From Candidatus Nealsonbacteria bacterium (lineage in GTDB: Bacteria > Patescibacteriota > Minisyncoccia > Minisyncoccales > CAZKCU01), in assembly GCA_047456305.1 (NCBI GenBank), contig CP179888.1:1690-65689 (forward strand): 64,000 nucleotides of DNA, given 5' to 3'. Below the pieces are notes generated by a model, which saw only the letters and a list, made by a program, of their open reading frames with translations, did no database searches and was not told the origin of the DNA. Shown piece by piece: positions 10,726 through 58,056 of this stretch; position 1 is the first letter of the stretch; each line of letters opens with the position of its first letter. The translations under genes and the position numbers were made by a program.

Positions 10726-12081
10726 ATGAAAATCAAAAAGCCAGACGGAACGATAGTGGAAGTGGCCGATGACTATACATTGTTGGAAGGCGAAGAGGAA
10801 GTAAAAGACAAGGGAAAAGATGAGGGAGCTGATGAGTCTCCTGCTGGGACACCTGGAGATGATGCTGGAAATGATGCTGGAGATGATAAAGATAAAGAAA
10901 CCGATGAAGAGAAAAAGGTTAAGACAGGATTGAAGACCTTCATTAGGTCAGAAACTGTTAAGTCCTTGGAGAAGGAGTTGAATAAGATTTCCGATGGATT
11001 GGTCAAGAAGTTCTTTGATGGCGTGACCAAGCAGAGAGCGAATTTGATTGACACCAAGAAGGAAGTCAAGAAGGACAGCGACCAGGAAGTGGTGAGGAAG
11101 TGGTTCAGCGCTCTTATTCGCAGGGACTCCCAGGCAATGGCGGAAATTCAGAAAGGGTTCATGGGAGATACTGATGTAACTCAGGGTGGAAATTTAGTCC
11201 CTACCCAGTTGCTTGCCGAGATAAACAGGTTCACTGAGGAATACGGAGTGGCGCGCAGAGACATGAGATATCTCCCATTCTCTGGACCTGGAAACAACAG
11301 ATGGATTCCAGCTTTGGCAAATTCAGTTAGTGTTTATTGGACTGCTAAAGGTGAAGCCAAGACATCGACCAAACCTACTTTCGGATTAGTTGAGCAGACC
11401 CTTGAAAAGCTTGCTGCCATCGTCCCGATAACCGAAGAGATTCTTGAGGATGCTGCAATCAACATTATAGCGTTGCTTGGTGAGTTGTTCGGTGAGGCGA
11501 TTGCGAAAGAGGAAGACAGAGTTTTCTTGAACGGAGACACCGGGGCAGGAGATCCTTACATGGGCGCCATCAGAGCAGTTGGAATCATTCCTGTGCCGAT
11601 GGGAGTCGGAGTTATTGCGAATATCACTGCCGATGATTTGAACAATCTTATCTATGCTGTTCCGAGAGCGATTAGAGATAAGGGTAAGTTCTACATGCAT
11701 AGCACCATCTTCCAGATTTTGCAGCAATTGAAGACTGCTCAGGGAATCTATATTGTGCAATCTCCTGTTGGAGCTAAGCCCGGCTCGATTTGGAACAGAC
11801 CTTATGAGCTGGTTGACATTCTTCCAGACAATTCAGTTTCAGGCGAAGATGAGCCAGTCATGTTCTATACTGATCTTTCCAAGACTTGCGTTTACGGAGA
11901 CAAGCAGGGTTTGAGGGTGAAGTTGCTCGACCAGGCAATTGTTAAGTCTGCAGAGGAGTCTCCTTCCGATTTGAACCTTGCCACCCAGGATATGGTTGCC
12001 TTGAGAATTGCGAAGAGGGTAGGCTATGTTCCTGTCCTTCCTGCCGGTATCGCTGTGTTGCAGTTAGGTGCAGAATCCTAA
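10726..12081 (+). CDS. major capsid protein, HK97 fold, with acidic N-terminal delta/scaffold-like region
   Basis: 451 aa. The acidic, low-complexity first ~130 aa are followed by a typical HK97-family capsid core (GGNLVPTQLLAEI...). Position after the protease. Confidence 0.85.
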   Translation: MKIKKPDGTIVEVADDYTLLEGEEEVKDKGKDEGADESPAGTPGDDAGNDAGDDKDKETDEEKKVKTGLKTFIRSETVKSLEKELNKISDGLVKKFFDGVTKQRANLIDTKKEVKKDSDQEVVRKWFSALIRRDSQAMAEIQKGFMGDTDVTQGGNLVPTQLLAEINRFTEEYGVARRDMRYLPFSGPGNNRWIPALANSVSVYWTAKGEAKTSTKPTFGLVEQTLEKLAAIVPITEEILEDAAINIIALLGELFGEAIAKEEDRVFLNGDTGAGDPYMGAIRAVGIIPVPMGVGVIANITADDLNNLIYAVPRAIRDKGKFYMHSTIFQILQQLKTAQGIYIVQSPVGAKPGSIWNRPYELVDILPDNSVSGEDEPVMFYTDLSKTCVYGDKQGLRVKLLDQAIVKSAEESPSDLNLATQDMVALRIAKRVGYVPVLPAGIAVLQLGAES

Positions 12082-17838: not shown

Positions 17839-18780
17839 ATGCACATAGGACGCAGAAACCAATTGAATATTACATTAGACCCGGTAGTAAGGATAGATAC
17901 CATTCCTTACCTTAGCTGCACACTCCAGGAAAGACACACTCCGATTGCCGACACGCAAGCGAAAGCAAGGAGAGATGCCGAAGGAAGTAAATCAGTGGAA
18001 GGAAAGAAATGGGGAGACGGAAGAGTTGAGGTCGTATTGGATCCGACTACAGCTCCTTACTGGTTGGCTTTGGCTTTGGGCAGGATAAATAGCTCCACGC
18101 CAAAGGACCATCTAATTACCCAGAGTCCAGAGAACGAGCCATTGATAGCCACAATTTCCAGGGAAAGGAATATGGGAGAAATAATTGAATTTCTGAATTC
18201 GGTGGTCGATACTTTTGAGCTTAATTTTGCCGATGATGTAGCAAAGTTGGGCATGGATATTATGTCAAAATATCCAACGTCTCCTGAAAGCCCGGAAAGT
18301 CCGGGAGATGTGGGAGAGGGAGAAGATCTGACCTATTACACATTCAGGAACGCCACTGTGAAGGTCGGCGATTTGGAGAGTCCAGAAGCGATGATACTGA
18401 TTCAGGTCAGGGAGCTGACCTTGAGGATTGAAAATGGGGCAGAGATTATCTTCTTGCCAAGAGGTGAGATTAGGATTGTTTGGAAGGCGATAAGGGTATC
18501 AGGCCATTTCAAGCTTTTATTCGAAGACGAAGTTCAATTAGGAGCTTTTGCCGATATATCTGCCAAACAAGGTTTGCTTATCACCTTTGAAGGAGAGGAT
18601 AGCGACAAGATAGAAATAGCAATTCCTACATTCAGGGTGGATAATTGGAGTGAGGAAGCCGGAATAGATGACTTGGTGGAAGAGGGGATTGACTTTGTGG
18701 CAGAATACGATGTCGATGCGGAAAAGACGATAAGCGCGGAGGTAGTCAACGGGGTCGACAGATACAAAGAAGAGTCATAA
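17839..18780 (+). CDS. major tail (tube) protein
   Basis: 313-aa ORF directly upstream of the chaperone pair and tape measure. No sheath gene is present, so a siphovirus-type tail is expected. Confidence 0.5.
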   Translation: MHIGRRNQLNITLDPVVRIDTIPYLSCTLQERHTPIADTQAKARRDAEGSKSVEGKKWGDGRVEVVLDPTTAPYWLALALGRINSSTPKDHLITQSPENEPLIATISRERNMGEIIEFLNSVVDTFELNFADDVAKLGMDIMSKYPTSPESPESPGDVGEGEDLTYYTFRNATVKVGDLESPEAMILIQVRELTLRIENGAEIIFLPRGEIRIVWKAIRVSGHFKLLFEDEVQLGAFADISAKQGLLITFEGEDSDKIEIAIPTFRVDNWSEEAGIDDLVEEGIDFVAEYDVDAEKTISAEVVNGVDRYKEES

Positions 18781-27694: not shown

Positions 27695-27752
27695 GGGACT
27701 GTGGATAAAACACTTGACAAGACCTCTTGGGTGTGAGAAAATTAAAATAGGT

Positions 27753-27917
27753 ATGAAGAAGAAAAAACAAACAATGGTTAGTGTTCCGATGGCGGAATAC
27801 AAAAGACTAAAGAGGTTAGATGCCAGAGAAATAAAAATGAGGCCACTGGTTTTGCAGTTGGCTTCTTTTATGTATAGCAAGAAAGTGAAGAAGAAAGTAT
27901 CTTTGACAATCCAATAG
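27753..27917 (+). CDS. small basic protein (possible RHH-type regulator)
   Basis: MKKKKQTMVSVPMAEYKRLKRLD has a beta-strand-plus-helix start like ribbon-helix-helix proteins. Call is weak. Confidence 0.3.
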   Translation: MKKKKQTMVSVPMAEYKRLKRLDAREIKMRPLVLQLASFMYSKKVKKKVSLTIQ

Positions 27918-28048: not shown

Positions 28049-29005
28049 ATGAAAAAATCTAACATTCCTATAATTAAACATATCCCCGACTTTTTAGACT
28101 ATTGTGAAGTTGAAAAAGGATTAGCAGATAAAACTCAACTAAATTATAACCGCTACCTCACCAAGTTCACCCACTGGCTCAAAAAGACCAAAAAAGACAA
28201 CCTTCTGCCTCATGAACTGACTGCCGATGATATCTGGGCCTATCGCTTATATTTAAGTCGTTATACAGGAGAAAAAGGCCGTCCCTTGAAGAAAGTCACC
28301 CAGAACTACTATTTAATAGCTTTAAGAGCCCTTTTAAGCTATTTTACAGCCAAAGACCTAATATCACTCCCCGCAGATAAAATAAAGCTCCCAAAAGACG
28401 CTAAAGCCGAAAAAACCTTAAAATTCCTTAATTTAGAGCAAATTGAGAGGCTTTTAACAACTCCTAAGGGAAACAGCCCAATTGACTTACGGAATAGAGC
28501 TATTTTAGAGACACTTTTCTCAACCGGCCTTAGGATAGCTGAATTAGTGGCTCTGAACAAGGAACAGTTTACTAATATAAAAGATAAGAAAGATTTAGAA
28601 ATTGGAATTATTGGTAAAGGAAGTCATCCCCGCACAGTCTATTTTTCAGAAAGAGCCCTGTCTTGGATTAAGAAGTATTTGGAAACTCGTAAAGACAAAG
28701 AAAAACCATTATTTATACATTATAGAGCCCGGGAAGACGCCGAAGCCCGCCTTACAGCTCGTTCTATAGAAAGAATTGTCAAAAAATACGCTGTTTTAGC
28801 TGGCGTTCCTATCTTTACCACTCCTCATACTCTTCGTCACTCAATGGCAACTGATTTATTAACCCAAGGAGTTGATTTAAGAACTATTCAGGAATTTTTA
28901 GGCCACAGAAATATCGTCACAACTCAAATATATACCCACGTAACAAATAAGCGCCTCCGAGACATCCACCGTCAGTACCACAGCGGCAAAAATTTAAAAG
29001 AATAG
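28049..29005 (+). CDS. tyrosine recombinase / integrase, XerC/XerD family
   Basis: N-terminal SAM-like core-binding domain. The C-terminus ...RNRAILETLFSTGLRIAEL...HTLRHSMATDLL..G.DLRTIQEFLGHRNIVTTQIYTHV supplies the R..HxxR..Y catalytic set. Confidence 0.9.
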   Translation: MKKSNIPIIKHIPDFLDYCEVEKGLADKTQLNYNRYLTKFTHWLKKTKKDNLLPHELTADDIWAYRLYLSRYTGEKGRPLKKVTQNYYLIALRALLSYFTAKDLISLPADKIKLPKDAKAEKTLKFLNLEQIERLLTTPKGNSPIDLRNRAILETLFSTGLRIAELVALNKEQFTNIKDKKDLEIGIIGKGSHPRTVYFSERALSWIKKYLETRKDKEKPLFIHYRAREDAEARLTARSIERIVKKYAVLAGVPIFTTPHTLRHSMATDLLTQGVDLRTIQEFLGHRNIVTTQIYTHVTNKRLRDIHRQYHSGKNLKE

Positions 29006-29294: not shown

Positions 29295-29681
29295 TTAACT
29301 CTCCACTTTAGAATGTTTCTCTATCCATAATGCAATTTCCTCTAATGTGAGGTGATTATTTACTACTCGTATAGTAAACTTTTCTACTTCATTCGTTTCT
29401 AATTCGAAAGAGTAGTTGTTTCTGTTTAAAAAAATTTTTACAACAGTTATACTAGTCCTCTTATTTCCATCTATAAAAATATGTCCTTCATTTATTGTTC
29501 GTAAATAAAAGGCGGCTTTAAAAAATATATTTGGATAAAGTTCTTGCCCAAAAACACTCTGGGCAGGTTGCGTTTCTAACATTAAAAGAGCGTGTTCATT
29601 TAACACGCCCCCTAAACCTCCTGTCTTTATTAAGATTTCATCGTGTATCTCTAGAATCTCCTCACTAGATAAATAATACAT
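29295..29681 (-). CDS. doc: Doc (death-on-curing) Fic-fold toxin
   Basis: HIFIDGNKRTS matches the Doc variant of the Fic motif. 128 aa. Confidence 0.85.
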   Translation of the reverse strand: MYYLSSEEILEIHDEILIKTGGLGGVLNEHALLMLETQPAQSVFGQELYPNIFFKAAFYLRTINEGHIFIDGNKRTSITVVKIFLNRNNYSFELETNEVEKFTIRVVNNHLTLEEIALWIEKHSKVES

Positions 29682-29688
29682 AAGTTAA

Positions 29689-29892
29689 TTATTTCTTTGC
29701 GAGAGATTCGAAAGCTTTTCTGTGCTTCTCTATAAACTCTGATGTCTCTTTTCTAACATCAGAGCTATATCTTCTTAAAACAAAAAAGGAGTTTTCCGTT
29801 TTATTAACATTAAATGTTAACCAATTTTTAAACCAATTTGGTCTTTCAAATTGTATACTATTAGTGCTGCTTGAACTAGTAATTGAAGTCAT
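29689..29892 (-). CDS. putative cognate antitoxin
   Basis: 67-aa ORF 7 nt upstream of doc. No Phd motif recognised. Confidence 0.4.
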   Translation of the reverse strand: MTSITSSSSTNSIQFERPNWFKNWLTFNVNKTENSFFVLRRYSSDVRKETSEFIEKHRKAFESLAKK

Positions 29893-29894
29893 AT

Positions 29895-30254
29895 TTATTT
29901 TATTAAAGTTAAATTAATATTAGTGGCTAATTCTTCTTTATCAACAAGAGCTTTAATTGTGTAAATACCCTGTTCAGGAAAAATAATATTAGCAAACCTC
30001 GCAATAAAATAATGAGTTATTCCGGTTGGAACTTCTTTGTCAACAGCAGCTATTTCCTTATGATCTTTTATGACAGAAATTCTAAAATGATGATTGCCTG
30101 GTGTTCCCTGTACAACAACACTAACGATTAACTCTTTGTGTTTGGCAGGAAAATTCAAAGCTCTAATAGAATTATAAATCCCCTCTATCGTAACTTTTTT
30201 AGTGTTATCATCAATATTTACCCTGTCTGAAATAAGAAGAGATAAAATTTTCAT
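29895..30254 (-). CDS. hypothetical protein, first gene of the doc operon
   Basis: 119-aa ORF, with a 2-nt gap to the next gene. Confidence 0.4.
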   Translation of the reverse strand: MKILSLLISDRVNIDDNTKKVTIEGIYNSIRALNFPAKHKELIVSVVVQGTPGNHHFRISVIKDHKEIAAVDKEVPTGITHYFIARFANIIFPEQGIYTIKALVDKEELATNINLTLIK

Positions 30255-30399
30255 ATTTTTATCTTTTCATAATTTGATTAAACAATAAAAGTTTCTTGGT
30301 TTTTATATTCATATGAATCCGCCTGTAAAATTATTTTAGATAAATATATTATATCACAATAAGGACGAGTAAACAATATTTTTTTATTTTTATGATTTT

Positions 30400-30792
30400 T
30401 CTGGTGTGATTATCCGATAACGAAACTTTTTAGTTAAAGGAGCGGACAATATACCTAGTCTGACGTAAATTTTAGCTTCATTTTTTCCCTTAAGTCGCAT
30501 AAGCTAAGTTGTCTGACGCTTTTCGGCCCTATTCGCCACAACCATGTTGTCAGACTGTACATATACCTATTGAGACTCTTATCAGGGTTTAGGTCGCCCT
30601 TTATCTATTATATACCCTTCAAGACTCTTAACACTACAAGGTGTCCTAGCGCCATCCCCTAGTCGGTCTCGAACTTGGATTTTAAGGGGAAATTAAGGGT
30701 TCTTTGAGCGTGTCCCACAATGCCTCTCGGTCGGGGTGTTTTAACCTAAAATGAGACAAATGAGACACTACTTAAGGGTATATTCTATTGTC
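30400..30792. repeat. non-coding element, copy 1 (best-conserved core 30645-30747), paralog of 38041-38429
   Basis: No ORF. The core aligns by eye with 38308-38408 (CCTAGC..TCGGTCT..TTTTAAGGG.AATTA.G.GGTTCT..GTGTC.CAC..TCTCGGTCG.GGTGTTTT). Sits directly 3' of a minus-strand gene. Confidence 0.5.
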
Positions 30793-31545
30793 TCATTTTT
30801 TTGTTAAGATCTCAGAAATAACGATTGGCTTCCAGACAATGCCAATCTCAGTCCCGAAACTACCTATGTTCCTACCTGAATAGACACCGAGGAACCTTAC
30901 TGCATTACCTATGGTATTACCTTTTGATGTTTGATAAATCGATACTCTCTTTGCAATTACAGGAGAACCCGACATACCACCTTTAGTCGTGGCGTCAATT
31001 AAGAACGCTGGTTTCCCATTCCAATCCAAATCAATATCGGAGGCAATATGTCCAGTTTTCCATATTGGAAACATGCCGGCAGAAGTTAACCCTTCAGGAT
31101 AGCCTATAATACTTACGGCTTCGGAGGGATATATCATTAAATCGAAATTACTTAAAGACAAATCTATATCATATACTTCTATATTAGGAGCTATCAAGAA
31201 TTTAATTGCGACAACGTCAATTTCGTTCCCAGAGACATGCTCTAACCATAACTTATTGCCTTTCTGATCAATTAAATTAATCTCGCAGGAAATCCAAGAA
31301 CCCAGTTTTTTTCCATGAAACCAAACTCTTAATTTTTGGGGATCTGCCATTCCGTTTTTCGAAATGGGTTTATTATCTTTTGGATCCCTCCCAGTCACAA
31401 CGTGCCAATTCGTGATGATATAATAAGAATCATCTTTTTTAACTGCAAAACCTGTTCCAACTCCAAGACCCTTATCATTTAAAAGTGTTTCCAAATATAA
31501 TGGTTTTTGAGAAAACTCATCAATAAATTTAATATTTCTTTCCAT
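30793..31545 (-). CDS. trypsin-like (S1/Trypsin_2) serine protease, cytoplasmic
   Basis: The His (ITNWHVV), Asp (IDVVAIK) and Ser (GGMSGSPV) triad appears in the correct order. No signal peptide seen. Confidence 0.75.
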   Translation of the reverse strand: MERNIKFIDEFSQKPLYLETLLNDKGLGVGTGFAVKKDDSYYIITNWHVVTGRDPKDNKPISKNGMADPQKLRVWFHGKKLGSWISCEINLIDQKGNKLWLEHVSGNEIDVVAIKFLIAPNIEVYDIDLSLSNFDLMIYPSEAVSIIGYPEGLTSAGMFPIWKTGHIASDIDLDWNGKPAFLIDATTKGGMSGSPVIAKRVSIYQTSKGNTIGNAVRFLGVYSGRNIGSFGTEIGIVWKPIVISEILTKK

Positions 31546-31592
31546 GTTTCTTTGATTTTGACTCTTCTATTTTTGTTGTCTATTTATTAATT

Positions 31593-31781
31593 TTAATAAA
31601 TCTTCTTCTTTTTTAATTTATATCTTTGAGGATTTACTCTCCTGTCAATTTTGAGGAGTAACTCAAAAAATCCTAATAAATTATAAGCGGCCTCGGAGAC
31701 CTCTTTTTTGCTTAATTTTCTGCCGTAATCTTTTTCAAATATTTCCTGAAGCTCTTTAACGGTTTCTTCTGAAATTTGCAT
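31593..31781 (-). CDS. small helical hypothetical protein
   Basis: 62-aa ORF between the 192-aa gene and the protease. Confidence 0.35.
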   Translation of the reverse strand: MQISEETVKELQEIFEKDYGRKLSKKEVSEAAYNLLGFFELLLKIDRRVNPQRYKLKKKKIY

Positions 31782-31809
31782 GGATTATTGTTTTATTTTG
31801 TTAAAAAAA

Positions 31810-32388
31810 TCATATTTTCAATAAAAGAGGTTTCTGGCTTCTGTCAGTTGTGATTTTAATAATCGCTTTTTGTAATAATTGTTCATATGTTTTAGGTGCT
31901 TTTATCTCCTCTTTCTTAAAAGATATGGGTCTCCAATAACTAAAAAATATCCGTTTATATGTTTTTAATGAAAAATCAACTCGAATAAATTTTTCTGATT
32001 GATTTTTTAAGAAAATTGGTAAAAATATAGGTTTTCTTTCTAAACTTTTCTTTTCATTGATAATTTGGTCAACAATCATCACTCCATCTTTTTCATTTTC
32101 TCGAATTGCTTCACAAATTTTTACATAATTAGATTTGCATCTATAATTATCTTTCCCTATCCATTCTGCTTGAATATTCTCAATTATTAAATTTTCCTTT
32201 GAAGCATTAACTAACTTTAAAGTCATAAACCAATCAAGCATAGAGAATCTATCAATAGGTATAGTCAAATCAAACCCTGCAGCGCTTACAGTAGCCGGAA
32301 CGATACTTACCGAAAACTGCCTGAAGGAGACAGGTTTTGCTTTATTTATATCTATTATTTTATCTATTTTTACTAAATTTATATCCAT
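31810..32388 (-). CDS. hypothetical protein (192 aa)
   Basis: ORF with no recognised motif. Preceded by a degenerate junction module. Confidence 0.4.
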   Translation of the reverse strand: MDINLVKIDKIIDINKAKPVSFRQFSVSIVPATVSAAGFDLTIPIDRFSMLDWFMTLKLVNASKENLIIENIQAEWIGKDNYRCKSNYVKICEAIRENEKDGVMIVDQIINEKKSLERKPIFLPIFLKNQSEKFIRVDFSLKTYKRIFFSYWRPISFKKEEIKAPKTYEQLLQKAIIKITTDRSQKPLLLKI

Positions 32389-32443
32389 CTTTCCTCTAAA
32401 TTATTTTTCTTTTTGTTGAGCTTCGAGTTAAATTTTAGTTATT

Positions 32444-32569
32444 TTAGTGCTTTTCTTCAAATTTCCATTCGGTTTTGTGTTTTGGTAAGTTTGTCCATTT
32501 GGTCTTGTGTTTCTTGGGTGTTCTCGATTTTGTTTTATGTTTTTTTTCGGACTTCCATTTTGTTGGCAT
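32444..32569 (-). CDS. 41-aa lysine/histidine-rich peptide (below the ORF-track cutoff)
   Basis: Hand translation gives MPTKWKSEKKHKTKSRTPKKHKTKWTNLPKHKTEWKFEEKH. Framed by the same Y (5') and X-like (3') junction modules as its neighbours. Confidence 0.25.
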   Translation of the reverse strand: MPTKWKSEKKHKTKSRTPKKHKTKWTNLPKHKTEWKFEEKH

Positions 32570-32581
32570 AAAATTATAAAA

Positions 32582-32608
32582 GTTTTATTTCTCAATTAAT
32601 TCTTCGAC
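32582..32608 (-). repeat. junction module Y, copy 4
   Basis: The minus strand reads GTCGAAGAATTAATTGAGAAATAAAAC, 12 nt before the ATG of the 41-aa ORF. Confidence 0.75.
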
Positions 32609-32624
32609 CTTTATAATTTTCCTT

Positions 32625-32642
32625 AACTTCGGGCTAAATTTT
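32625..32642 (-). repeat. junction module X, copy 4
   Basis: AAAATTTAGCCCGAAGTT after the stop of 32649..33038. Degenerate copies lie at 32420-32436 and 34753-34768. Confidence 0.8.
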
Positions 32643-32648
32643 AGTTAT

Positions 32649-33038
32649 TTAATCGTTAAGTAGTTTAGGATTCTTCTTCCTAAAATATGCAATCAAAATT
32701 ACCTCTACTAAACTACACATATCTTTATCTTTTATTTCCTTATAGGCAAATTTACAATTATCAATAACCCATTTTCGCATTAATTTACCAAATGGAATTC
32801 CGTATATCTCATGTATTTTCTTTCTAAAAATACTTGTAGAACCTCTTCGTTCTCCAGAAATATGATCACTGTTTATCCTTCTATTTAAATTTTTCCCCTT
32901 CCCTGCGTAAATAATTTGATTTTTATTATAAATTAAATAAACTCCCTGGATTTCTGGAATTTTTCTAGTGTTTTCTATGGGTTTATTATTTAATAATTGA
33001 TTGGCAATTTTCTTTGCCTTTTTTAAAATTATTTCCAT
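32649..33038 (-). CDS. GIY-YIG nuclease-domain protein
   Basis: GVYLIYNKNQIIYAGKGKNLNRRI fits GIY...YIG...R. Confidence 0.6.
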   Translation of the reverse strand: MEIILKKAKKIANQLLNNKPIENTRKIPEIQGVYLIYNKNQIIYAGKGKNLNRRINSDHISGERRGSTSIFRKKIHEIYGIPFGKLMRKWVIDNCKFAYKEIKDKDMCSLVEVILIAYFRKKNPKLLND

Positions 33039-33044
33039 TTCCTC

Positions 33045-33062
33045 AATTTCGGGCTAAATTTT
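33045..33062 (-). repeat. junction module X, copy 3
   Basis: AAAATTTAGCCCGAAATT after the stop of 33065..33667. Confidence 0.8.
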
Positions 33063-33064
33063 GA

Positions 33065-33667
33065 TTATTTTTTATTTAATTTTCTTTTAAAATATTTTTC
33101 CGGATTTTTAAAATTTAAAATAGCTTCATTTATTACACTTTTTTCTTTTTCCTTTAACTTACTATTCTTAATTAATTGTTCAATCCATTCTGCAGTGGCT
33201 TTAAGATAAATACATAATAATCTTTCTGCCAGTTTTGTTTTTTCCCCTTCATTGTCAATATATTTTTTCATTTCTTTTTCTGTTTTTTTGATGCTTTGTT
33301 TGGATTTAATTATTCGGTGCATAGCCTCAATCCTTATTTTATTAAATTTTTCAATATCTTTAATAATCGATTTATCCTTTAAAACTCTTTCAAGGTTTAA
33401 TTTTGAATATCCAAGAGGTTTATTGACTGATAATGTCATAGCCTTAAACATGCTTTTTTTAAGGTGTAAATTTATTATATCTTCATTCAACTTAATAATT
33501 TCCTCTATGAGGTATTCAATTATTTGACTTTTAAAAAGAATATATGCTATATAAAATCCTTTTGTATATAGCATACTCCCTCTATCTAAAACTTGCATCA
33601 ATAATTTTGCTCCGCAATGTATCTCTTCTAATTTTTTCCTTAATCGGGTTAACTTCTTTTTTTGCAT
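33065..33667 (-). CDS. hypothetical helical protein (200 aa)
   Basis: ORF between X-type junctions. Confidence 0.4.
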   Translation of the reverse strand: MQKKKLTRLRKKLEEIHCGAKLLMQVLDRGSMLYTKGFYIAYILFKSQIIEYLIEEIIKLNEDIINLHLKKSMFKAMTLSVNKPLGYSKLNLERVLKDKSIIKDIEKFNKIRIEAMHRIIKSKQSIKKTEKEMKKYIDNEGEKTKLAERLLCIYLKATAEWIEQLIKNSKLKEKEKSVINEAILNFKNPEKYFKRKLNKK

Positions 33668-33687
33668 GATTTTTACAAAATTTCTTC

Positions 33688-33705
33688 AACTTCGGGCTAA
33701 ATTTT
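33688..33705 (-). repeat. junction module X, copy 2
   Basis: Identical 18-mer AAAATTTAGCCCGAAGTT after the stop of 33709..34035. Confidence 0.8.
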
Positions 33706-33708
33706 GAT

Positions 33709-34035
33709 TTATTTAAAAATTTTACTAAATGCCTCTATTAAAAATTTTATAGGACTAACTAACAACTCTAAAAAACCTAACAATCTAAACCTTAATGACC
33801 AAGGATAGTTTGCCCCACAATTATGACAATTAAGTGGTACAGGAGTAGAGGTCAAATCCACAAATCCTTCAATAATATAATGACCACGAATTGGAACGCC
33901 ACATTTAGGGCACCTATAAATTGTCTTTGCTCCGCATTTGTCACAAAATTCCTGTCTGAATTTAGGTGAACTATTATAATGGTCGGTTATTTGGTGCCCC
34001 CTCCGGCAAACCTGCATTGTCTCATAATGCCCCAT
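33709..34035 (-). CDS. multi-zinc-ribbon protein
   Basis: Three zinc-ribbon-like units: CRRGH...CDKCG, CPKCG, CHNCG. Confidence 0.5.
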   Translation of the reverse strand: MGHYETMQVCRRGHQITDHYNSSPKFRQEFCDKCGAKTIYRCPKCGVPIRGHYIIEGFVDLTSTPVPLNCHNCGANYPWSLRFRLLGFLELLVSPIKFLIEAFSKIFK

Positions 34036-34040
34036 AGTCT

Positions 34041-34068
34041 AATTTTATTTCTCAATTAATTTTTCGAC
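34041..34068 (-). repeat. junction module Y, copy 3
   Basis: The minus strand reads GTCGAAAAATTAATTGAGAAATAAAATT, 5 nt before the ATG. Confidence 0.75.
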
Positions 34069-34081
34069 TTTTTAGCTATAA

Positions 34082-34336
34082 TCACTTAAAGATCGCCACG
34101 ATTAACGAAAGAATAGTAATAACAGCCATTACAATTGTTATATTTTTTTGAAATCCTTTAACGTGACTTAATGTCTCATTTTGATTTTCTAGCGCTTCTA
34201 GTTGGAATACTTCTGGCGCTGTCATCACCCTTTTACACTTAGCACATATAAAATATGCCGGTATCGCACCCACCTCAAGCTCTCGCCTTGAGTCAGTATG
34301 TATCTCCCACTCGTGGTCGCATTTATTTTTAATCAT
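34082..34336 (-). CDS. small zinc-ribbon protein with C-terminal TM anchor
   Basis: CDHEW...CAKCKRV, then ITIVMAVITILSLIVAIF. Confidence 0.45.
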   Translation of the reverse strand: MIKNKCDHEWEIHTDSRRELEVGAIPAYFICAKCKRVMTAPEVFQLEALENQNETLSHVKGFQKNITIVMAVITILSLIVAIFK

Positions 34337-34342
34337 ATTTTT

Positions 34343-34360
34343 AACTTCGGGCTAAATTTT
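34343..34360 (-). repeat. junction module X, copy 1
   Basis: The minus strand reads AAAATTTAGCCCGAAGTT, starting 2 nt after a stop codon. Confidence 0.8.
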
Positions 34361-34362
34361 AA

Positions 34363-34725
34363 TTAGTTTTTATTTTTTGATTTATGATTGGTTAATAATT
34401 CGTGTTCTTCGTGTAAAATCTTTCCAGTTTTATTATCTTTTACTACGTGATGATATTCGTTTTTCTCACGATCAATTTCCATCTGAACTTCTACACCTTC
34501 TGACAACTTAGGATTTGTACTTGGCTTAAAACCACTGAAAACTTTTTTTAAAAACCCCTTAAAACCAGGACGTTTCTGTATTATTCTTATTGAATCCCGA
34601 ACTTTGACCGTATCAGAAATACATACTTTAAAAAGATTTGGTGTTTCTTTCTGGCATTGTCTACAAAATTTCGATTCTTTTTCTAGACCGCATTCTACAC
34701 AAAAAATTTTATCCGATTCTTCCAT
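34363..34725 (-). CDS. zinc-ribbon protein (120 aa)
   Basis: CVECG...CRQCQ. The true ATG is at 34725; the track ORF starts at a TTG inside the conserved junction. Confidence 0.45.
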   Translation of the reverse strand: MEESDKIFCVECGLEKESKFCRQCQKETPNLFKVCISDTVKVRDSIRIIQKRPGFKGFLKKVFSGFKPSTNPKLSEGVEVQMEIDREKNEYHHVVKDNKTGKILHEEHELLTNHKSKNKN

Positions 34726-34752
34726 AATTTTATTTCTCAATTAATTCTTTAA
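34726..34752 (-). repeat. junction module Y, copy 2
   Basis: The minus strand reads TTAAAGAATTAATTGAGAAATAAAATT followed by the ATG. Confidence 0.8.
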
Positions 34753-34779
34753 TACTTCCCGGAAATTTCATCTCTTATA

Positions 34780-35235
34780 CTAGACCAAAGATGCTTTTAT
34801 CAAACTCCCAAGTTCTGCCTTAATTAAGCTTTCTATATTAATGTTGTCTGCGAGCTTGATATTAAAAGTAATATGAAATTCTTGTCTTTCTTTTTCGCCA
34901 CGCTCAATCCCTTCGATCATATCGATTCCTTCAGAAGAAACTCTGATATTCAAAAATTGCTCTGAAACATTATCTTGGCTCCGAGACATAGAAATAAACC
35001 CCTTTTCATGTAAATATATCAAGGCATTATAAATATCATTATCGCTTCTCGATATTTCTATAAGACTCTTGCAAATTTTGTGCTCCCTATTGTCCATTGC
35101 CGGTGATTTTTCTCCTTTCAAAAAACCTCTCATTTGAAAACTTAATAAAAAATCATTTAAATACGCATAGTCATCTCTTTGAATATAATATAAATACAAA
35201 AGAATCTTTCCTGCAATTCTTTTAATTGGTTCCAT
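34780..35235 (-). CDS. hypothetical protein (151 aa), possible wHTH
   Basis: ATG at 35235. The upstream 26 nt are identical to those of 34363..34725. Confidence 0.45.
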   Translation of the reverse strand: MEPIKRIAGKILLYLYYIQRDDYAYLNDFLLSFQMRGFLKGEKSPAMDNREHKICKSLIEISRSDNDIYNALIYLHEKGFISMSRSQDNVSEQFLNIRVSSEGIDMIEGIERGEKERQEFHITFNIKLADNINIESLIKAELGSLIKASLV

Positions 35236-35264
35236 AATTTTATTTCTCAATTAATTCTTCGAAG
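35236..35264 (-). repeat. junction module Y, copy 1
   Basis: The minus strand reads CTTCGAAGAATTAATTGAGAAATAAAATT, directly followed by the ATG. Confidence 0.8.
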
Positions 35265-35272
35265 TTTTTACA

Positions 35273-36043
35273 TTATTTTTCGCCAATCCTAAACTTCGCT
35301 GATTTTACCAATTTAATACTGTTATAATCTTTAGGATTCTTGAATTCGAATTGCCAGATTGAATAAACATCTTCACCGCTCGCTTTATCAAAAAATAATG
35401 TAATAACTTTTTTCTTTGTCTGTTCTCGCCATTGTCTAAATGGATAAAAAAGCTGGCGGATAATAATATTTGTAGCGCTAAAGTTTTTTGCCTCAATAAG
35501 CACGACTTGATTTTTACCCTCATAACCAGCGTCAACTTCTGTCTGTACGCTTGAAACCTTAATGACTTGTTTGCCAACTTTAAATTCAAAATCAGGAGTA
35601 TATTTTCTGCCTCGTATCGTAAGAACAAGCGAAGGATCTTCCATAAAAGTACGGATTAAACTCGCAGCGTAAGCGAAATCAAGGTGCTGCATTTCTGAAT
35701 TACCTATTTTTGTCGTGTCTAATTGAAAGTCGAGCCTTGAAGAATAAACCACAACTTCTTTTTTAATTTCCGGAATATCGATATATCCTTCGCCTTTAAT
35801 AATGTTGTAGTAGCCATTTCTTACGGGAAGCAAAAACAAATTATGCTTTTGGAAAATATCTGGCCTACTTTCTCTACTATCTTGTTTGCATAAAATACGG
35901 ACTTCTTTCTCGCCCGTCTCTTTGAATTTCTGGCAGGCCCGCTTTATTTGCGTTGCAGAAAGTGGAAACGGCAATTTGTCAAAATCGTGATCTAAAATTT
36001 TATAGTCATCAAAAATTTTCTTCCAAGATTTGCTGTTTGCCAT
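35273..36043 (-). CDS. type II restriction endonuclease candidate (PD-(D/E)XK)
   Basis: 256-aa ORF 4 nt downstream of the methyltransferase. VQTEVDAGYEGKNQVVLIEAKN fits D-x(n)-E-x-K. Confidence 0.55.
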   Translation of the reverse strand: MANSKSWKKIFDDYKILDHDFDKLPFPLSATQIKRACQKFKETGEKEVRILCKQDSRESRPDIFQKHNLFLLPVRNGYYNIIKGEGYIDIPEIKKEVVVYSSRLDFQLDTTKIGNSEMQHLDFAYAASLIRTFMEDPSLVLTIRGRKYTPDFEFKVGKQVIKVSSVQTEVDAGYEGKNQVVLIEAKNFSATNIIIRQLFYPFRQWREQTKKKVITLFFDKASGEDVYSIWQFEFKNPKDYNSIKLVKSAKFRIGEK

Positions 36044-36047
36044 AGTA

Positions 36048-37502
36048 TTAAAGTAATTTACTTTTAATATTTTTATCTAACTCCTCGAATCGTTTAATTG
36101 ATAAATCCAAATATTTTTTATCGGTATCAATACCGACAAAATTTCTCCCTAAAAGATAAGCGGCAATGCCGGTTGTCGAGCTTCCGGTGAACGGATCAAC
36201 AATCAAATCCCCCTTTTTGGTACTAGCAAGCACAATTCTTTTTAATAAATCCTCCGGTTTTTGTGTTGGATGTTTTCCAAATTTTTTTTCAACAGACTTT
36301 GGCGTTCCTATAGACCAGATCGATCGCATTTGCGTATTGGGCTTTTTGATGGAATCTTCCGGCCAACTACCGTTCTTCATTAAATTATAATTGAAAGTGT
36401 GTTTTGCTTCTTTATCTTTCCTCGCCCAAAGCAAAGTTTCATGACTTGCGGTAAAATAACGACAGCTTAAATTAGGCGATGCATTCGGTTTAAACCAAGA
36501 AATATCATTTAAAATATGGAATTTAGCGACCTGCATAGCGAAACCGCATTGATAAATTGAATGATAGGTTCCGCTTACCCAAAGAGTTCCATTGGGCTTT
36601 AAAACACGCCTTACAGCCTTTATCCATTCGAGATGAAACTCAAAATCTTTTTTCAATCCATTACTTCTATCCCATTCTCCTTTATTAACGCTAACACGCC
36701 GCCCGGCATGAAGACTAAAGCCCCCGTTAGAAAGCAGATAAGGAGGATCGGCAAAAACCATATCAATCGAATTCTCTGGAAGCTCTGCGAGAATATCCAA
36801 GCAATTAGCGTGATACAATTTAAATTTAGGTTTCTCATAATATGGCTTCTTTGTTCCTATAATTTCTTTCTTTTGTTCCGAAGCTGTATTTTCTTTCCTC
36901 ACCATCTTTCCGATTAATTGTATTTCGGAAGTAAAGGGAATGTTTTTATATTTCAGATTTTCCGGCTTTAAGAATTTGTAGGGCGGTTTAGTTTGGCAAA
37001 CATAACGTTTTACGGTTGTACCATCTGGAGTTTGAGCTAAAACAATGTCGCCTGAGATGAATTCATTAGTTTTTTTAAACAAGATCAAATCTCCGTCGTT
37101 GATATTAGCATTAATCATTGAATCCCCCATAACGCGGACCACAATCACGTTGTCGGCAATAGTTTCTACGTCTTTTGATAAAGGTTGCCAAGCGTCAATT
37201 TCTTCTATAGCTTCGGTAAAACCTCCGGCCGAAGTATAACCGACTATCGGAGCTAAAGGAGAAACATCTATTGCTCTGTACCCTTTTTTGAGAATTTTGA
37301 TTCCGCGAGCCGAACCTTCTTCGCGAGTAATAAAATTCTTTCTTTCCAAAATAGAAAAAATGTCCAAAAGAGTTTGGTTTGAAGAAATATTGAGCTTTTC
37401 TTTAAGCTCGCTGAAAGAAGGTGGAAAACCGGCAGAAATCAAACTGTCATAAATGTTCTTTAGAACTTCCTTTTGTCTTTTTGTTATAGCTTCTTTTTGC
37501 AT
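36048..37502 (-). CDS. fusion protein: LexA-like repressor (wHTH + S24 peptidase) joined to a beta-class N6A/N4C DNA methyltransferase
   Basis: Residues ~1-205 are collinear with LexA: TKRQKEVL..GFPPS..E....RGIKIL, an Ala-Gly site in TSAGGF, GDSM serine, TVKRY lysine. Residues ~230-484 carry DPPY (motif IV) before DPFTGSSTTG (motif I). Confidence 0.8.
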   Translation of the reverse strand: MQKEAITKRQKEVLKNIYDSLISAGFPPSFSELKEKLNISSNQTLLDIFSILERKNFITREEGSARGIKILKKGYRAIDVSPLAPIVGYTSAGGFTEAIEEIDAWQPLSKDVETIADNVIVVRVMGDSMINANINDGDLILFKKTNEFISGDIVLAQTPDGTTVKRYVCQTKPPYKFLKPENLKYKNIPFTSEIQLIGKMVRKENTASEQKKEIIGTKKPYYEKPKFKLYHANCLDILAELPENSIDMVFADPPYLLSNGGFSLHAGRRVSVNKGEWDRSNGLKKDFEFHLEWIKAVRRVLKPNGTLWVSGTYHSIYQCGFAMQVAKFHILNDISWFKPNASPNLSCRYFTASHETLLWARKDKEAKHTFNYNLMKNGSWPEDSIKKPNTQMRSIWSIGTPKSVEKKFGKHPTQKPEDLLKRIVLASTKKGDLIVDPFTGSSTTGIAAYLLGRNFVGIDTDKKYLDLSIKRFEELDKNIKSKLL

Positions 37503-37508
37503 ATTAAA

Positions 37509-37538
37509 TAATAATACCCGACCAAGTGGTCGGGTGTC
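37509..37538 (-). promoter_or_regulatory. promoter TTGACA-18-TATTAT whose spacer is an 18-bp palindromic operator, 6 nt from the ATG
   Basis: Read on the minus strand: TTGACA (37538-37533), CCCGACCActTGGTCGGG (37532-37515, perfect 8-bp arms), TATTAT (37514-37509), 6 nt, then ATG at 37502. Confidence 0.55.
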
Positions 37539-37605
37539 AACAGAACTTTATCCACAGTCTTCTTATCCGAAATGTCGCACAAGATGCGTTATAAGGCTTT
37601 GAAAA

Positions 37606-37637
37606 TAAAAATCGCCAAGAAGGCGGTTTTTTTGTAA
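37606..37637 (+). promoter_or_regulatory. hairpin/-10 box (P-box) in inverted orientation
   Basis: The plus strand reads AAAAATCGCCAAGAAGGCGGTTTTTTTGTAAGTT. All other copies have this sense on the minus strand. Confidence 0.35.
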
Positions 37638-37676
37638 GTTCCGAGGGACGGACGATGTTGAAACCTATTTGATAAA

Positions 37677-37719
37677 TTAAAACAAAATGCCTACAGACGG
37701 ATAATCTATCTGTAGGCAT
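37677..37719 (-). terminator. intrinsic terminator (usable from both strands)
   Basis: Perfect 11-bp stem ATGCCTACAGA/TCTGTAGGCAT (37687-37719). A T-rich tract follows on the minus strand. Confidence 0.6.
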
Positions 37720-37748
37720 TGCACGATGACTGCCCTCCTTAATATTCT

Positions 37749-37964
37749 TTATTTCGGTACAAATTCTACATCGTAGTTAACTAAGGAAAATAACTGTGTT
37801 GGCTCATTCTCAGTGGTGGGCGGGGCTATTTCTACAGCACCGCCCTCAAAAGCAAGCCCTATATACCCTTTTCCATTCCTGAGCTCTAAAACTTTTCTCC
37901 TGCCAAATATCCCCCTTTTTGTAACCGTAACCCTATAGACAGTAATAGCGTTATGTAATAACAT
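37749..37964 (-). CDS. hypothetical 71-aa protein
   Basis: Strong SD (AGGAGGGATAGA before the ATG) and a terminator directly downstream. Confidence 0.5.
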   Translation of the reverse strand: MLLHNAITVYRVTVTKRGIFGRRKVLELRNGKGYIGLAFEGGAVEIAPPTTENEPTQLFSLVNYDVEFVPK

Positions 37965-38010
37965 TCTATCCCTCCTTTTTTTGTGATTTTATATTATCTT
38001 ATCACCTACA

Positions 38011-38039
38011 ATAAAAAAAATCAAGCCCTAATGGCTTGA
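38011..38039 (-). terminator. intrinsic terminator closing the non-coding region 38041-38429
   Basis: Stem TCAAGCC/GGCTTGA (38021-38039). Eight T follow on the minus strand. Confidence 0.55.
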
Positions 38040-38040
38040 A

Positions 38041-38429
38041 ATTGCGAGCTTCGCGGGTAGAATTCGAACTAATACAAATTATGCGACATTGACTCCTCGT
38101 CCATAGATTATCCGTCTTAAGTCCTCAAACGCTGGTGTTGTGACGTTTATGTCGCACTATGCTCCTCATTCATAGATTGTGAAACAAGATAAGCTTTTGA
38201 CTCCTCTCTGATGCGAAGGACGTCATACGTCGGTGTTGTGGACACAAAGGGCGACATAAGTCCTCATCCGTTAATTATGCGACTCTTTTCGCTTGATTGG
38301 TTCGAATCCTAGCCCCTGGCATCCTCGGTCTGGAAATGAGGTTTTAAGGGTAATTTAGGCGGTTCTGGGGGTGTCTCACCGCCGCGTCTCGGTCGAGGTG
38401 TTTTTGAATAAAAGGAATAAATGCATGCC
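38041..38429. repeat. non-coding element, copy 2 (core 38308-38408), with internal ~65-110 nt sub-repeats
   Basis: No ORF. The core is paralogous to 30645-30747. The internal units GACTCCTC..CATAGATT / ..GGTGTTGTG..GCGACAT recur two to three times. Confidence 0.5.
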
Positions 38430-38708
38430 TTATTCGCACCCCCACCCATCTCCATCTCTGTCTAAATCAAAAACATCTGGACCAATAACACGAACACGCC
38501 CTGTATAATATGGGCCGTTACCAGATCCACCAGCGCAATCATAATCACTAGCATTTGGATTTAAACAGCCAGAATAGCTTGGGTGGCATTTTTGTTCTGG
38601 AAGAGTAACAGATTCCGATGATTGATTTGACTCGCTCAAGTTAGATATTAATCAAATCAAAAAGCCTATAAACATAAGGGTTAAAATTACCTTATTTATG
38701 TTTGTCAT
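38430..38708 (-). pseudogene. Excalibur calcium-binding-domain secreted protein interrupted by an in-frame TGA (pseudogene or recoded)
   Basis: C-terminus DCAGGSGNGPYY...DLDRDGDGWGCE is the Excalibur motif. ATG at 38708 gives MTNINKVILTLMFIGFLI, then TGA at 38654-38652, then the same frame continues LISNLSESNQ... Confidence 0.6.
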
Positions 38709-38723
38709 CTTTTCTCTTTTTAT

Positions 38724-38945
38724 TTATATTTTATGACACTCTTCATTACAATGTTTACATCCATCTATCTTCCATTCAGGAAAGCGTTTCTTGGCCTCCG
38801 CCATAGCATCTTCACAGTTAGAAAAATCACCAAGTCTAATTCTATTCTCTTGAAGAGGGGCTTCGGGACAATTATCATCTTTATGAATTTCGTGCTCACC
38901 ATGCTCTGGATAGGATTGAGGATTTTTATTTATATAATAAGACAT
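38724..38945 (-). CDS. small Cys/His-rich hypothetical protein
   Basis: 73-aa ORF with CPEAP...C....C.HCNEECH. Confidence 0.45.
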   Translation of the reverse strand: MSYYINKNPQSYPEHGEHEIHKDDNCPEAPLQENRIRLGDFSNCEDAMAEAKKRFPEWKIDGCKHCNEECHKI

Positions 38946-39108
38946 TTTATTAATTTTTTAATTGACAATTTCGACCTTTTTACTAATCCATGTTATCTGG
39001 ACAAACGAATTAGTAATCCAAAAATTGGCTTAAATAGCACTCTCAGGTCTGCCTCGATACTGCTCTGACTCGTGCTGCGGGTAATGAACGATGTTAGAAC
39101 CTGTTTGG

Positions 39109-57722: not shown

Positions 57723-57741
57723 ACCGGAGAACGGTTCTCCG
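57723..57741 (-). terminator. terminator hairpin, copy 1
   Basis: CGGAGAA-CGG-TTCTCCG. T6 follows on the minus strand. Confidence 0.5.
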
Positions 57742-57782: not shown

Positions 57783-57803
57783 ATACGGAGAACGGTTCTC
57801 CGT
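57783..57803 (-). terminator. terminator hairpin, copy 2 (same stem)
   Basis: TACGGAGAA-CGG-TTCTCCGTA with T-runs on both strands. Lies downstream of tRNA-Lys. Confidence 0.55.
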
Positions 57804-57983
57804 ATTTTGTTTAATCGAAAAATAAAGAATAATTCTTTCCGTACTTAAATTTTATAATAAAATTTTATTTAATGCGACACAACTCAGGAGAGCTGAATAG
57901 TTGGTTTATATCTCGCATTTTTAATTTTGAATTTAACAAAAACAAATTGGGCTTACCTCGCGAGGTTGACTTTCCTTAAAAAG

Positions 57984-58056
57984 TGCCCCCACTAGGACTT
58001 GAACCTAGACTTACTGCTTAAAAGGCAGTTACTCTACCAAATTGAGTTATGGGGGC
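57984..58056 (-). tRNA. tRNA-Lys (anticodon TTT)
   Basis: 73 nt. Acceptor GCCCCCA/TGGGGGC, D stem ACTC/GAGT, anticodon stem ACTGC/GCAGT with loop CTTTTAA, T arm CTAGG-TTCAAGT-CCTAG. CCA is not encoded. Confidence 0.9.

Follow-up and report, generated by a model that had tools for sequence, protein, structure and literature searches.

A palindrome filling the promoter spacer of a LexA-methyltransferase fusion gene is probably its SOS box in a lineage of Nealsonbacteria

Introduction

Classical LexA boxes, CTGT-N8-ACAG in E. coli and GAAC-N4-GTTC in Gram-positive bacteria, overlap the lexA promoter, and autoregulation through an operator placed in the promoter is textbook knowledge for LexA. 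Here we describe a palindrome that fills the promoter spacer of a gene for LexA fused to a DNA methyltransferase (lexA::MTase), located in a 64,000-nucleotide (64-kb) stretch of the genome of a Candidatus Nealsonbacteria bacterium (assembly GCA_047456305.1, contig CP179888.1, positions 1,690 to 65,689 of the forward strand), hereafter called the window. All coordinates are given in window numbering, and the promoter elements are read along the minus strand. We estimate a probability of about 0.8 that this palindrome is the SOS box of the lexA promoter and that its product is a complete LexA fused C-terminally to a type II methyltransferase.

The locus resembles classical lexA autoregulation in several respects: a winged helix-turn-helix (wHTH) domain, an S24 peptidase domain with Ala-Gly and a Ser/Lys dyad, and a dyad operator over the lexA core promoter. 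Damage-induced self-cleavage, known for classical LexA, is here predicted. In contrast to the classical systems, the window has the motif C-Y-GAC-N6-GTC-R-G, with half-site centres 11 bp apart, and a single box exactly in the -35/-10 spacer. Its repressor carries a DNA methyltransferase as fusion partner and is encoded by the first gene of a restriction-modification (R-M) operon, and a DnaA box is a conserved partner element.

Methyltransferases with an N-terminal regulatory helix-turn-helix (HTH) are known from M.SsoII and M.Ecl18kI (PMC3978073, PMC6100179, PMC3695355). As a functional analogy only, there too a single polypeptide methylates DNA and, with its N-terminal region, recognizes an inverted repeat at the promoter of the R-M system to which it belongs. 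However, those enzymes are C5-methyltransferases whose regulatory region measures ~70 amino acids (aa); their M and R genes are divergent, and on binding M is repressed and R stimulated. In the window, a 200-aa LexA equipped with an autoproteolytic switch is joined to a beta-class N6/N4 CcrM-like enzyme, and M and R run in one direction behind a single promoter. C-protein control of type II R-M systems (reviewed in PMC3874152) likewise relies on a dimeric HTH protein that autoregulates the R-M operon via a palindromic operator. In contrast, C proteins are small stand-alone Xre-type HTH proteins whose action at tandem C-boxes turns, depending on concentration, from activation to repression, and they have neither a peptidase domain nor a link to DNA damage; between 37503 and 37750 we found no separate Xre-type C gene and no tandem C-boxes.

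DnaA is also known as a transcription factor (PMC8203912), and E. coli uvrB, where a DnaA box and a LexA box occur at one promoter, provides a precedent for joint control by DnaA and LexA (PMC6015884). The likeness suggests combined replication and damage inputs, but the window promoter is that of lexA itself, and its single perfect 9-mer is conserved across the whole radiation. Direct-repeat LexA boxes are known from Alphaproteobacteria (GTTC-N7-GTTC; PMC8565304); period-11 direct repeats occur similarly in sister clades of the Candidate Phyla Radiation (CPR), in line with the plasticity known for LexA motifs, whereas the window's clade uses an inverted repeat. New in the present locus are the lineage motif, the type II methylase fusion, the systematic arrangement of lexA with R-M genes, and the DnaA-box partner. 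Part of the picture may be described already in the work of Sanchez-Osuna, Barbe and Erill (2017, Environ Microbiol 19:3465) on the SOS network of Patescibacteria. In the literature searched we found nothing on LexA together with R-M systems in CPR.

Results

On the minus strand the promoter reads GACTGTGGATAAAGTTCTG - TTGACA - CCCGACCACTTGGTCGGG - TATTAT - TATTTAAT - ATG. The -35 hexamer TTGACA occupies 37540-37535, and its TTGAC is invariant in 13 of 13 aligned orthologous promoters. The -10 hexamer TATTAT (37516-37511) follows 18 nt past the -35, and the proposed LexA operator, CCCGACCA-CT-TGGTCGGG (37534-37517), fills the spacer between them. In a promoter scan, TTGACA/18 nt/TATTAT was the top sigma-70-like match in 35000-39000, with 11 of 12 positions matched, and among the related promoters that allowed the measurement the spacer length is 17-18 nt. 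The first-pass annotation had listed -35, palindrome, -10 and ATG in this order, and all of these elements were confirmed on the minus strand; the positions it assigned to the first three (37538-37533, 37532-37515 and 37514-37509) were 2 nt too low. It had further described a perfect 18-bp palindrome. The layout is in fact 8+2+8: the 8-bp arms are indeed perfect, while the 2-nt centre is not self-complementary.

Between the -10 hexamer and the ATG start codon (37502-37500) lies an A/T-only stretch, TATTTAAT, without a Shine-Dalgarno sequence. It is 8 nt long (37510-37503), and not 6 nt as previously counted. The same 8-nt gap was found in 11 of the 14 related promoters measured; an exception is L212 (L numbers denote the loci compared), which has an 18-nt leader with AAGGAGG. 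Because a Shine-Dalgarno sequence is missing and the 8-nt gap is so widely shared, the predicted leaderless or near-leaderless lexA::MTase mRNA is plausible. Farther upstream, after a 71-aa open reading frame (ORF), a terminator-like hairpin on the minus strand (ATGCCTACAGA...TCTGTAGGCAT then TTTTGTTTT, 37686-37720) is predicted to insulate the lexA promoter from upstream read-through.

The fusion gene (36048-37502, minus strand) encodes 484 aa and was characterized by Pfam, NCBIfam, PDB and PADLOC matches. A LexA wHTH domain (aa 4-67; 37302-37493; PF01726, LexA_DNA_bind, 7.5e-12) is followed by an S24 peptidase domain (aa 85-201; PF00717, Peptidase_S24, 1.3e-21) with Ser128 and Lys165, and by an N6/N4, CcrM-like methyltransferase domain (aa 246-469; PF01555, N6_N4_Mtase). 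Alignment to E. coli LexA places the cleavage site at Ala92-Gly93 (37224-37229). These two residues, together with Ser128 and Lys165, correspond to E. coli Ala84-Gly85, Ser119 and Lys156, whose roles are taken from PMC3091678, and they are invariant in 17 homologues. The LexA half exceeds the cut-off of the NCBIfam lexA equivalog TIGR00498 (120.4 vs 110.95 bits) and matches LexA entries in the PDB at 1e-15 to 1e-18; together with PF01726, these matches bear out the LexA-type wHTH recognized in the first-pass annotation. For the methylase half, the nearest solved structure is CcrM (3e-58), and PADLOC gives a MTase_II match of 1.3e-99. All three domains are present in 102 of the best 120 database homologues, so that the fusion is not an assembly artefact, and the taxon-named homologues among these 120 are Parcubacteria or Nealsonbacteria. 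By these matches the gene product is a complete LexA fused to a type II methyltransferase. Since the protein is a full LexA, the site would be the SOS box of a damage-inducible lexA-M-R operon, beyond a mere methylase operator.

The restriction partner is a type II restriction endonuclease gene on the minus strand (35273-36043; DUF6996+DUF6997 by Pfam; PADLOC REase_II, 1.8e-34). It begins 4 nt past the stop codon of the fusion, in the same direction, and is presumably co-transcribed with it. No relative of this enzyme with a solved structure was detectable by sequence. A DUF6996/DUF6997 gene also lies behind the fusion in L003, L005, L006, L015, L018 and L063; depending on the locus, the downstream partner of the fused methylase is either this enzyme or a MutH-like one.

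In order to follow the palindrome among relatives, we compared the upstream regions of fused orthologues and of stand-alone LexA proteins 50-83% identical to the N-terminal half. A clade defined by a recognition helix starting (S/V)SNQ provided 17 distinct promoters, 7 from fused orthologues and 10 from stand-alone lexA genes, with proteins about 50-86% identical. In 15 of the 17, a two-armed palindrome lies within the -35/-10 spacer, between TTGAC(A/G/C) and the -10 hexamer, and the core conserved across the clade is C-Y-GAC-N6-GTC-R-G. The form CCCGACCA-NN-TGGTCGG(G) is shared by the window, L001, L003, L005, L006, L204 and L219, and variants were found in L203 (CCGACCATTTGGTCGG), L205 (CCGACCAAACAGTCGG), L207 (CCCGACTGAACGGTCGGG), L211 (CCCGACTAAACAGTCGGG), L217 (CCCGACTAAATAGTCGGG), L007 (CCTGACCAATTGGTCAG), L009 (ACTGACCGATTGGTCAG) and L212 (ACTGACTAAAAGGTCAGT). 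The palindrome is kept even at ~50% protein identity to the window (stand-alone L217 and L219), and among loci sharing it the flanking intergenic DNA and the neighbouring genes vary. The inner positions that give the window its 8-bp arms are not conserved among orthologues. Symmetry between the arms was pronounced, with 89.8% of cells paired vs 6-49% when the partner was slid by 1-3 columns. We also considered a variant of the Gram-positive Cheo box (CGAAC-N4-GTTCG changed to CGACC-N4-GGTCG), and dropped it because distant orthologues keep only C-Y-GAC-N6-GTC-R-G.

Changes in the operator were accompanied by changes in the recognition helix. At three loci, L007, L009 and L212, C9:G22 is replaced by T:A on both arms, turning CCGAC into CTGAC. 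Residue 44 is Ala in these three only, and Ser or Thr in the other 14 loci, which have CCGAC. This residue aligns with Ala42 of E. coli LexA, one of five helix-III residues listed as DNA-contacting (PMC3091678). The comparison extends to sister LexA clades, fused or stand-alone and 49-58% identical, which have different recognition helices. There, STAH(F/Y/H) or STVNHY helices go with TTCTA direct repeats, and ST(I/V/A)HQH helices with TTCGG direct repeats, at the equivalent promoter position and always with a period of 11 nt. These repeats were seen at L010-L019, L040, L051, L059, L063, L065, L073 (7443-7533) and L076; in L076 both they and the DnaA box are found on the strand opposite to the gene. 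That the operator type follows the helix type is as expected if LexA itself reads the sites. Taken together, conservation, co-variation and the sister clades support the earlier proposal that the spacer palindrome is an operator through which the gene would be autoregulated by its own LexA wHTH.

A further element, overlooked in the first-pass annotation, is a perfect DnaA-box 9-mer 7 nt upstream of the -35 hexamer (37548-37556; TGTGGATAA on the minus strand, TTATCCACA on the plus strand). The window holds only two copies of this 9-mer. A perfect copy was present at 27 of 31 distinct lexA promoters from all clades (L001-L019, L040-L076 and L203-L219), upstream of the -35 by 0-10 nt and oriented either way. 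Within 100 nt upstream of ~58 stand-alone methylase orthologues, the DnaA box was absent, and so was the palindrome. That the DnaA box stays constant while the LexA boxes change suggests a separate conserved binding protein, for which DnaA is the obvious candidate. In CPR loci, DnaA boxes also occur before promoter-like sequences of some unrelated genes (for instance L007 12368, L047 2649 and L205 3374). The window's second copy, within 27700-27755 (plus strand), is followed by TTGACA and then by AGACCTCTTGGGTGT, in which the left half-site, GACC, is good and the right one poor; its match to the LexA box (27720-27734) is at chance level, and we do not claim it as an operator. This arrangement precedes a 54-aa ORF (27753-27917) just before the prophage integrase, and may be a phage promoter that copies the layout of the lexA promoter.

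We then determined how often the palindrome occurs. Even when 3 mismatches are allowed, it has one copy in the 64-kb window; shuffled sequences gave an expectation of 0.04 copies, with one or more matches in 4 of 100 shuffles. Perfect inverted repeats whose arms reach 8 bp or more are, however, common in the window (38 entries, one for each combination of start position and spacer, vs ~13 in shuffles), so that the palindrome alone is weak evidence. Ten of the 38 entries have GC-rich arms, including two that are nested readings of the lexA palindrome; at least some of the others look like terminator hairpins, for instance the two at 57725 and 57786. What marks the palindrome as non-random is its location in the promoter spacer and its conservation in orthologous promoters. 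Over 165 kb of clade loci the motif was found only at lexA promoters, apart from 2 chance-level matches. A scan of 185,579 species genomes for CCCGACCANNTGGTCGGG gave at least 120 matches; the listed ones, which we evaluated, were mostly single chance hits, where the genome was GC-rich, and terminator stems, where it belonged to Bacteroidota. Thus CCCGACCA-NN-TGGTCGGG forms the stem of an A-tract/hairpin/T-tract terminator in genomes that are unrelated and low in GC (L099, L103, L105, L111, L123, L136, L170, L185 and L193; Flagellimonas and other Bacteroidota). Because identical bases form terminator stems elsewhere, the sequence alone does not identify a LexA site. The first-pass annotation had asked whether the palindrome might be a generic repeat recurring at many positions. 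Such a repeat family is ruled out within our data by the single window copy, by clade matches lying at lexA promoters, and by the scattered single matches among those listed. A relaxed operator pattern with mixed arms, TGACGTTTATGTCG, lies at 38141-38154, just downstream of a weak promoter-like site (38183-38156, minus strand). It is not claimed as an operator, since ~1.9 such matches are expected by chance in the window.

The association of lexA with R-M genes, which had likewise escaped earlier notice, is not confined to the fusion. Directly behind stand-alone lexA, an R-M gene was found in 10 of 11 loci (L203, L204, L205, L207, L211, L212, L214, L217, L218 and L219; the exception is L073). 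The partners are DpnI, an Eco57I-like methylase with Tsp45I, an N6/N4 methylase with HinfI, a type IIG enzyme, or an unknown gene with an N6/N4 methylase. L204 and L219 share their upstream synteny and carry different cassettes, which suggests that lexA is resident and that cassettes are exchanged behind it.

As to the specificity of the methylase, a GANTC target, proposed from the CcrM match and from the HinfI neighbour in L205, was unsupported: GANTC is not depleted in the window (194 observed vs 217 expected), and the methylases of L205 and of the window share only 40% identity. Among 4-bp palindromes, GATC shows the strongest depletion (78 observed vs 217 expected, a ratio of 0.36), in both the prophage and the host parts, although CTAG, GTAC, CGCG and GCGC are under-represented too. 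A MutH-like restriction endonuclease stands beside the fused methylase in L001, L007, L011 and L019, and DpnI, which is specific for methyl-GATC, stands behind stand-alone lexA in L203 and L207. Together with the depletion, these pairings hint at GATC as the target.

The remainder of the window contains a prophage-like stretch, or its right-hand part, at 1-29005, with genes for a portal and Mu F-like protein (5540-7648), a major capsid protein (10726-12081), a tail tube protein (17839-18780) and a tyrosine integrase (28049-29005). Downstream of the R-M pair, on the minus strand, 29295-35250 holds a defence-island-like gene set: a Fic/DOC protein (29295-29681), a trypsin-like peptidase with a PADLOC PDC-S45 match (30793-31545), a GIY-YIG protein (32649-33038), a DUF2321 zinc-ribbon protein (33709-34035) and several small Cys-rich ORFs. 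The sole tRNA gene of the window, for tRNA-Lys, lies at 57983-58056. Between it and an S41 peptidase gene, there are two identical copies of a GC-rich hairpin, CGGAGAACCGTTCTCCG, spaced 61 nt apart (57725-57741 and 57786-57802) and each with a T-run behind it; they look like duplicated terminators.

Discussion

From the anatomy of the promoter, the domain content and catalytic residues of the protein, the conservation of the site and its co-variation with the helix, we infer the following mechanism. The LexA-MTase would dimerize via its S24 domain and place one N-terminal wHTH domain on each of the CCGAC/GTCGG half-sites, with 11 bp from centre to centre. With the 18-nt spacer that separates TTGACA from TATTAT taken up entirely by the site, RNA polymerase would be excluded while the repressor is bound, and the (near-)leaderless lexA::M-R operon would be under negative autoregulation. 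Once DNA is damaged, RecA would stimulate the protein to cut itself at Ala92-Gly93; its DNA-binding domain would thereby come off, and methylase and restriction enzyme would be de-repressed together. A further input, from the replication initiator DnaA, probably comes in through the 9-mer just upstream of the -35.

Other explanations of the palindrome have to be weighed against this mechanism. It could be the operator of a different regulator, such as a second LexA paralogue, another transcription factor or a phage repressor. Our view is limited to 64 kb of the genome, the prophage is 8 kb away, and the prophage promoter at 27700-27750 combines the DnaA-box/TTGACA layout with a partial half-site. 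However, the site travels with lexA whatever genes flank it, and it co-varies with the LexA helix both within the clade, at residue 44, and between clades; because a trans-acting factor is not expected to track the LexA helix, we consider such a regulator unlikely. The palindrome could also act as an RNA- or DNA-level hairpin, as an intrinsic terminator of upstream read-through or a cruciform, with no protein bound. The scan entry, with 8 pairs of which 6 are G-C followed by ATTATTATTT, a predicted RNA hairpin of -15.7 kcal/mol, and the evident terminator stems that the same 16 specified bases form in unrelated Bacteroidota and other genomes all fit that idea. Yet a terminator-like hairpin is already present upstream at 37686-37720, the downstream T-run is not conserved (L007 TTAAAATATTTT, L009 ATAGAATATC), and transcription from this promoter is predicted to start downstream of the site. 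In L205, L207, L211 and L217 the inner stem is unpaired, leaving 5-6-bp arms and a 6-nt loop, while the outer CCGAC/GTCGG is conserved where inner pairing is lost, which is the pattern of protein half-sites. With no significant Rfam match in 37300-38100 either, a hairpin role appears quite improbable.

Promoters controlled by methylation are known elsewhere, and through the fusion a methyltransferase would be tethered to this one, so one may ask whether the methyltransferase domain recognizes the site, or whether the site responds to methylation, in which case the methylation state, and not the wHTH, would set expression. The depletion of GATC in the window would agree with this. But neither GATC nor GANTC occurs in the palindrome or the promoter, stand-alone lexA genes that have no fused methylase and have unrelated R-M partners keep the same palindrome, and stand-alone methylase orthologues lack both the palindrome and the DnaA box upstream; we give this explanation slightly less credit still than a hairpin. 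Lowest of all we rate a functionless chance occurrence. Perfect inverted repeats with 8-bp arms are indeed numerous in the window, and among the matches listed the exact copies in unrelated genomes are single and at roughly chance frequency. Nevertheless, position and sequence are kept in 15 of 17 promoters over ~50% protein divergence while the flanks are not, and the changes in the arms are symmetric.

For the SOS-box reading itself, a number of points weigh against it. Two of the promoters, L214 and L218, keep the right arm only and hence one half-site. The co-variation of residue 44 with the arm base is suggestive rather than decisive, because it represents about two independent events, L007 and L009 being close relatives, and shared ancestry inflates the agreement. 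No further operator site was found upstream of a repair gene, either in the 64-kb window or, beyond chance, in the 165 kb of clade loci. The promoter scan also marks the palindrome as terminator-like, and the bulky C-terminal methyltransferase raises a question over LexA-like dimerization and RecA-dependent cleavage.

A broader proposal, which we advance tentatively and rate at somewhat less than an even chance, is that the chromosomal LexA of CPR bacteria of the Parcubacteria/Nealsonbacteria type has turned into a controller of R-M and defence cassettes that are inserted behind lexA or fused to it. Expression would proceed from one (near-)leaderless promoter that integrates a LexA box, for DNA damage, with a DnaA box, for replication status. 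If this is true, DNA damage would raise restriction and modification together, and in the fusion RecA-triggered cleavage would inactivate the repressor and also alter the attached methylase.

In summary, for a CPR lineage that is uncultured our analysis offers a LexA box, C-Y-GAC-N6-GTC-R-G, concrete enough to be tested. The correlation between residue 44 and the operator base, together with the direct repeats of the sister clades, forms a natural series for the evolution of LexA specificity. In these tiny genomes lexA is nearly always the first gene of an R-M operon, which implies SOS-controlled restriction, unlike the regulation by C proteins or by M.SsoII. Finally, the nearly universal DnaA box at lexA suggests that the damage response is directly linked to replication initiation in these regulator-poor organisms.

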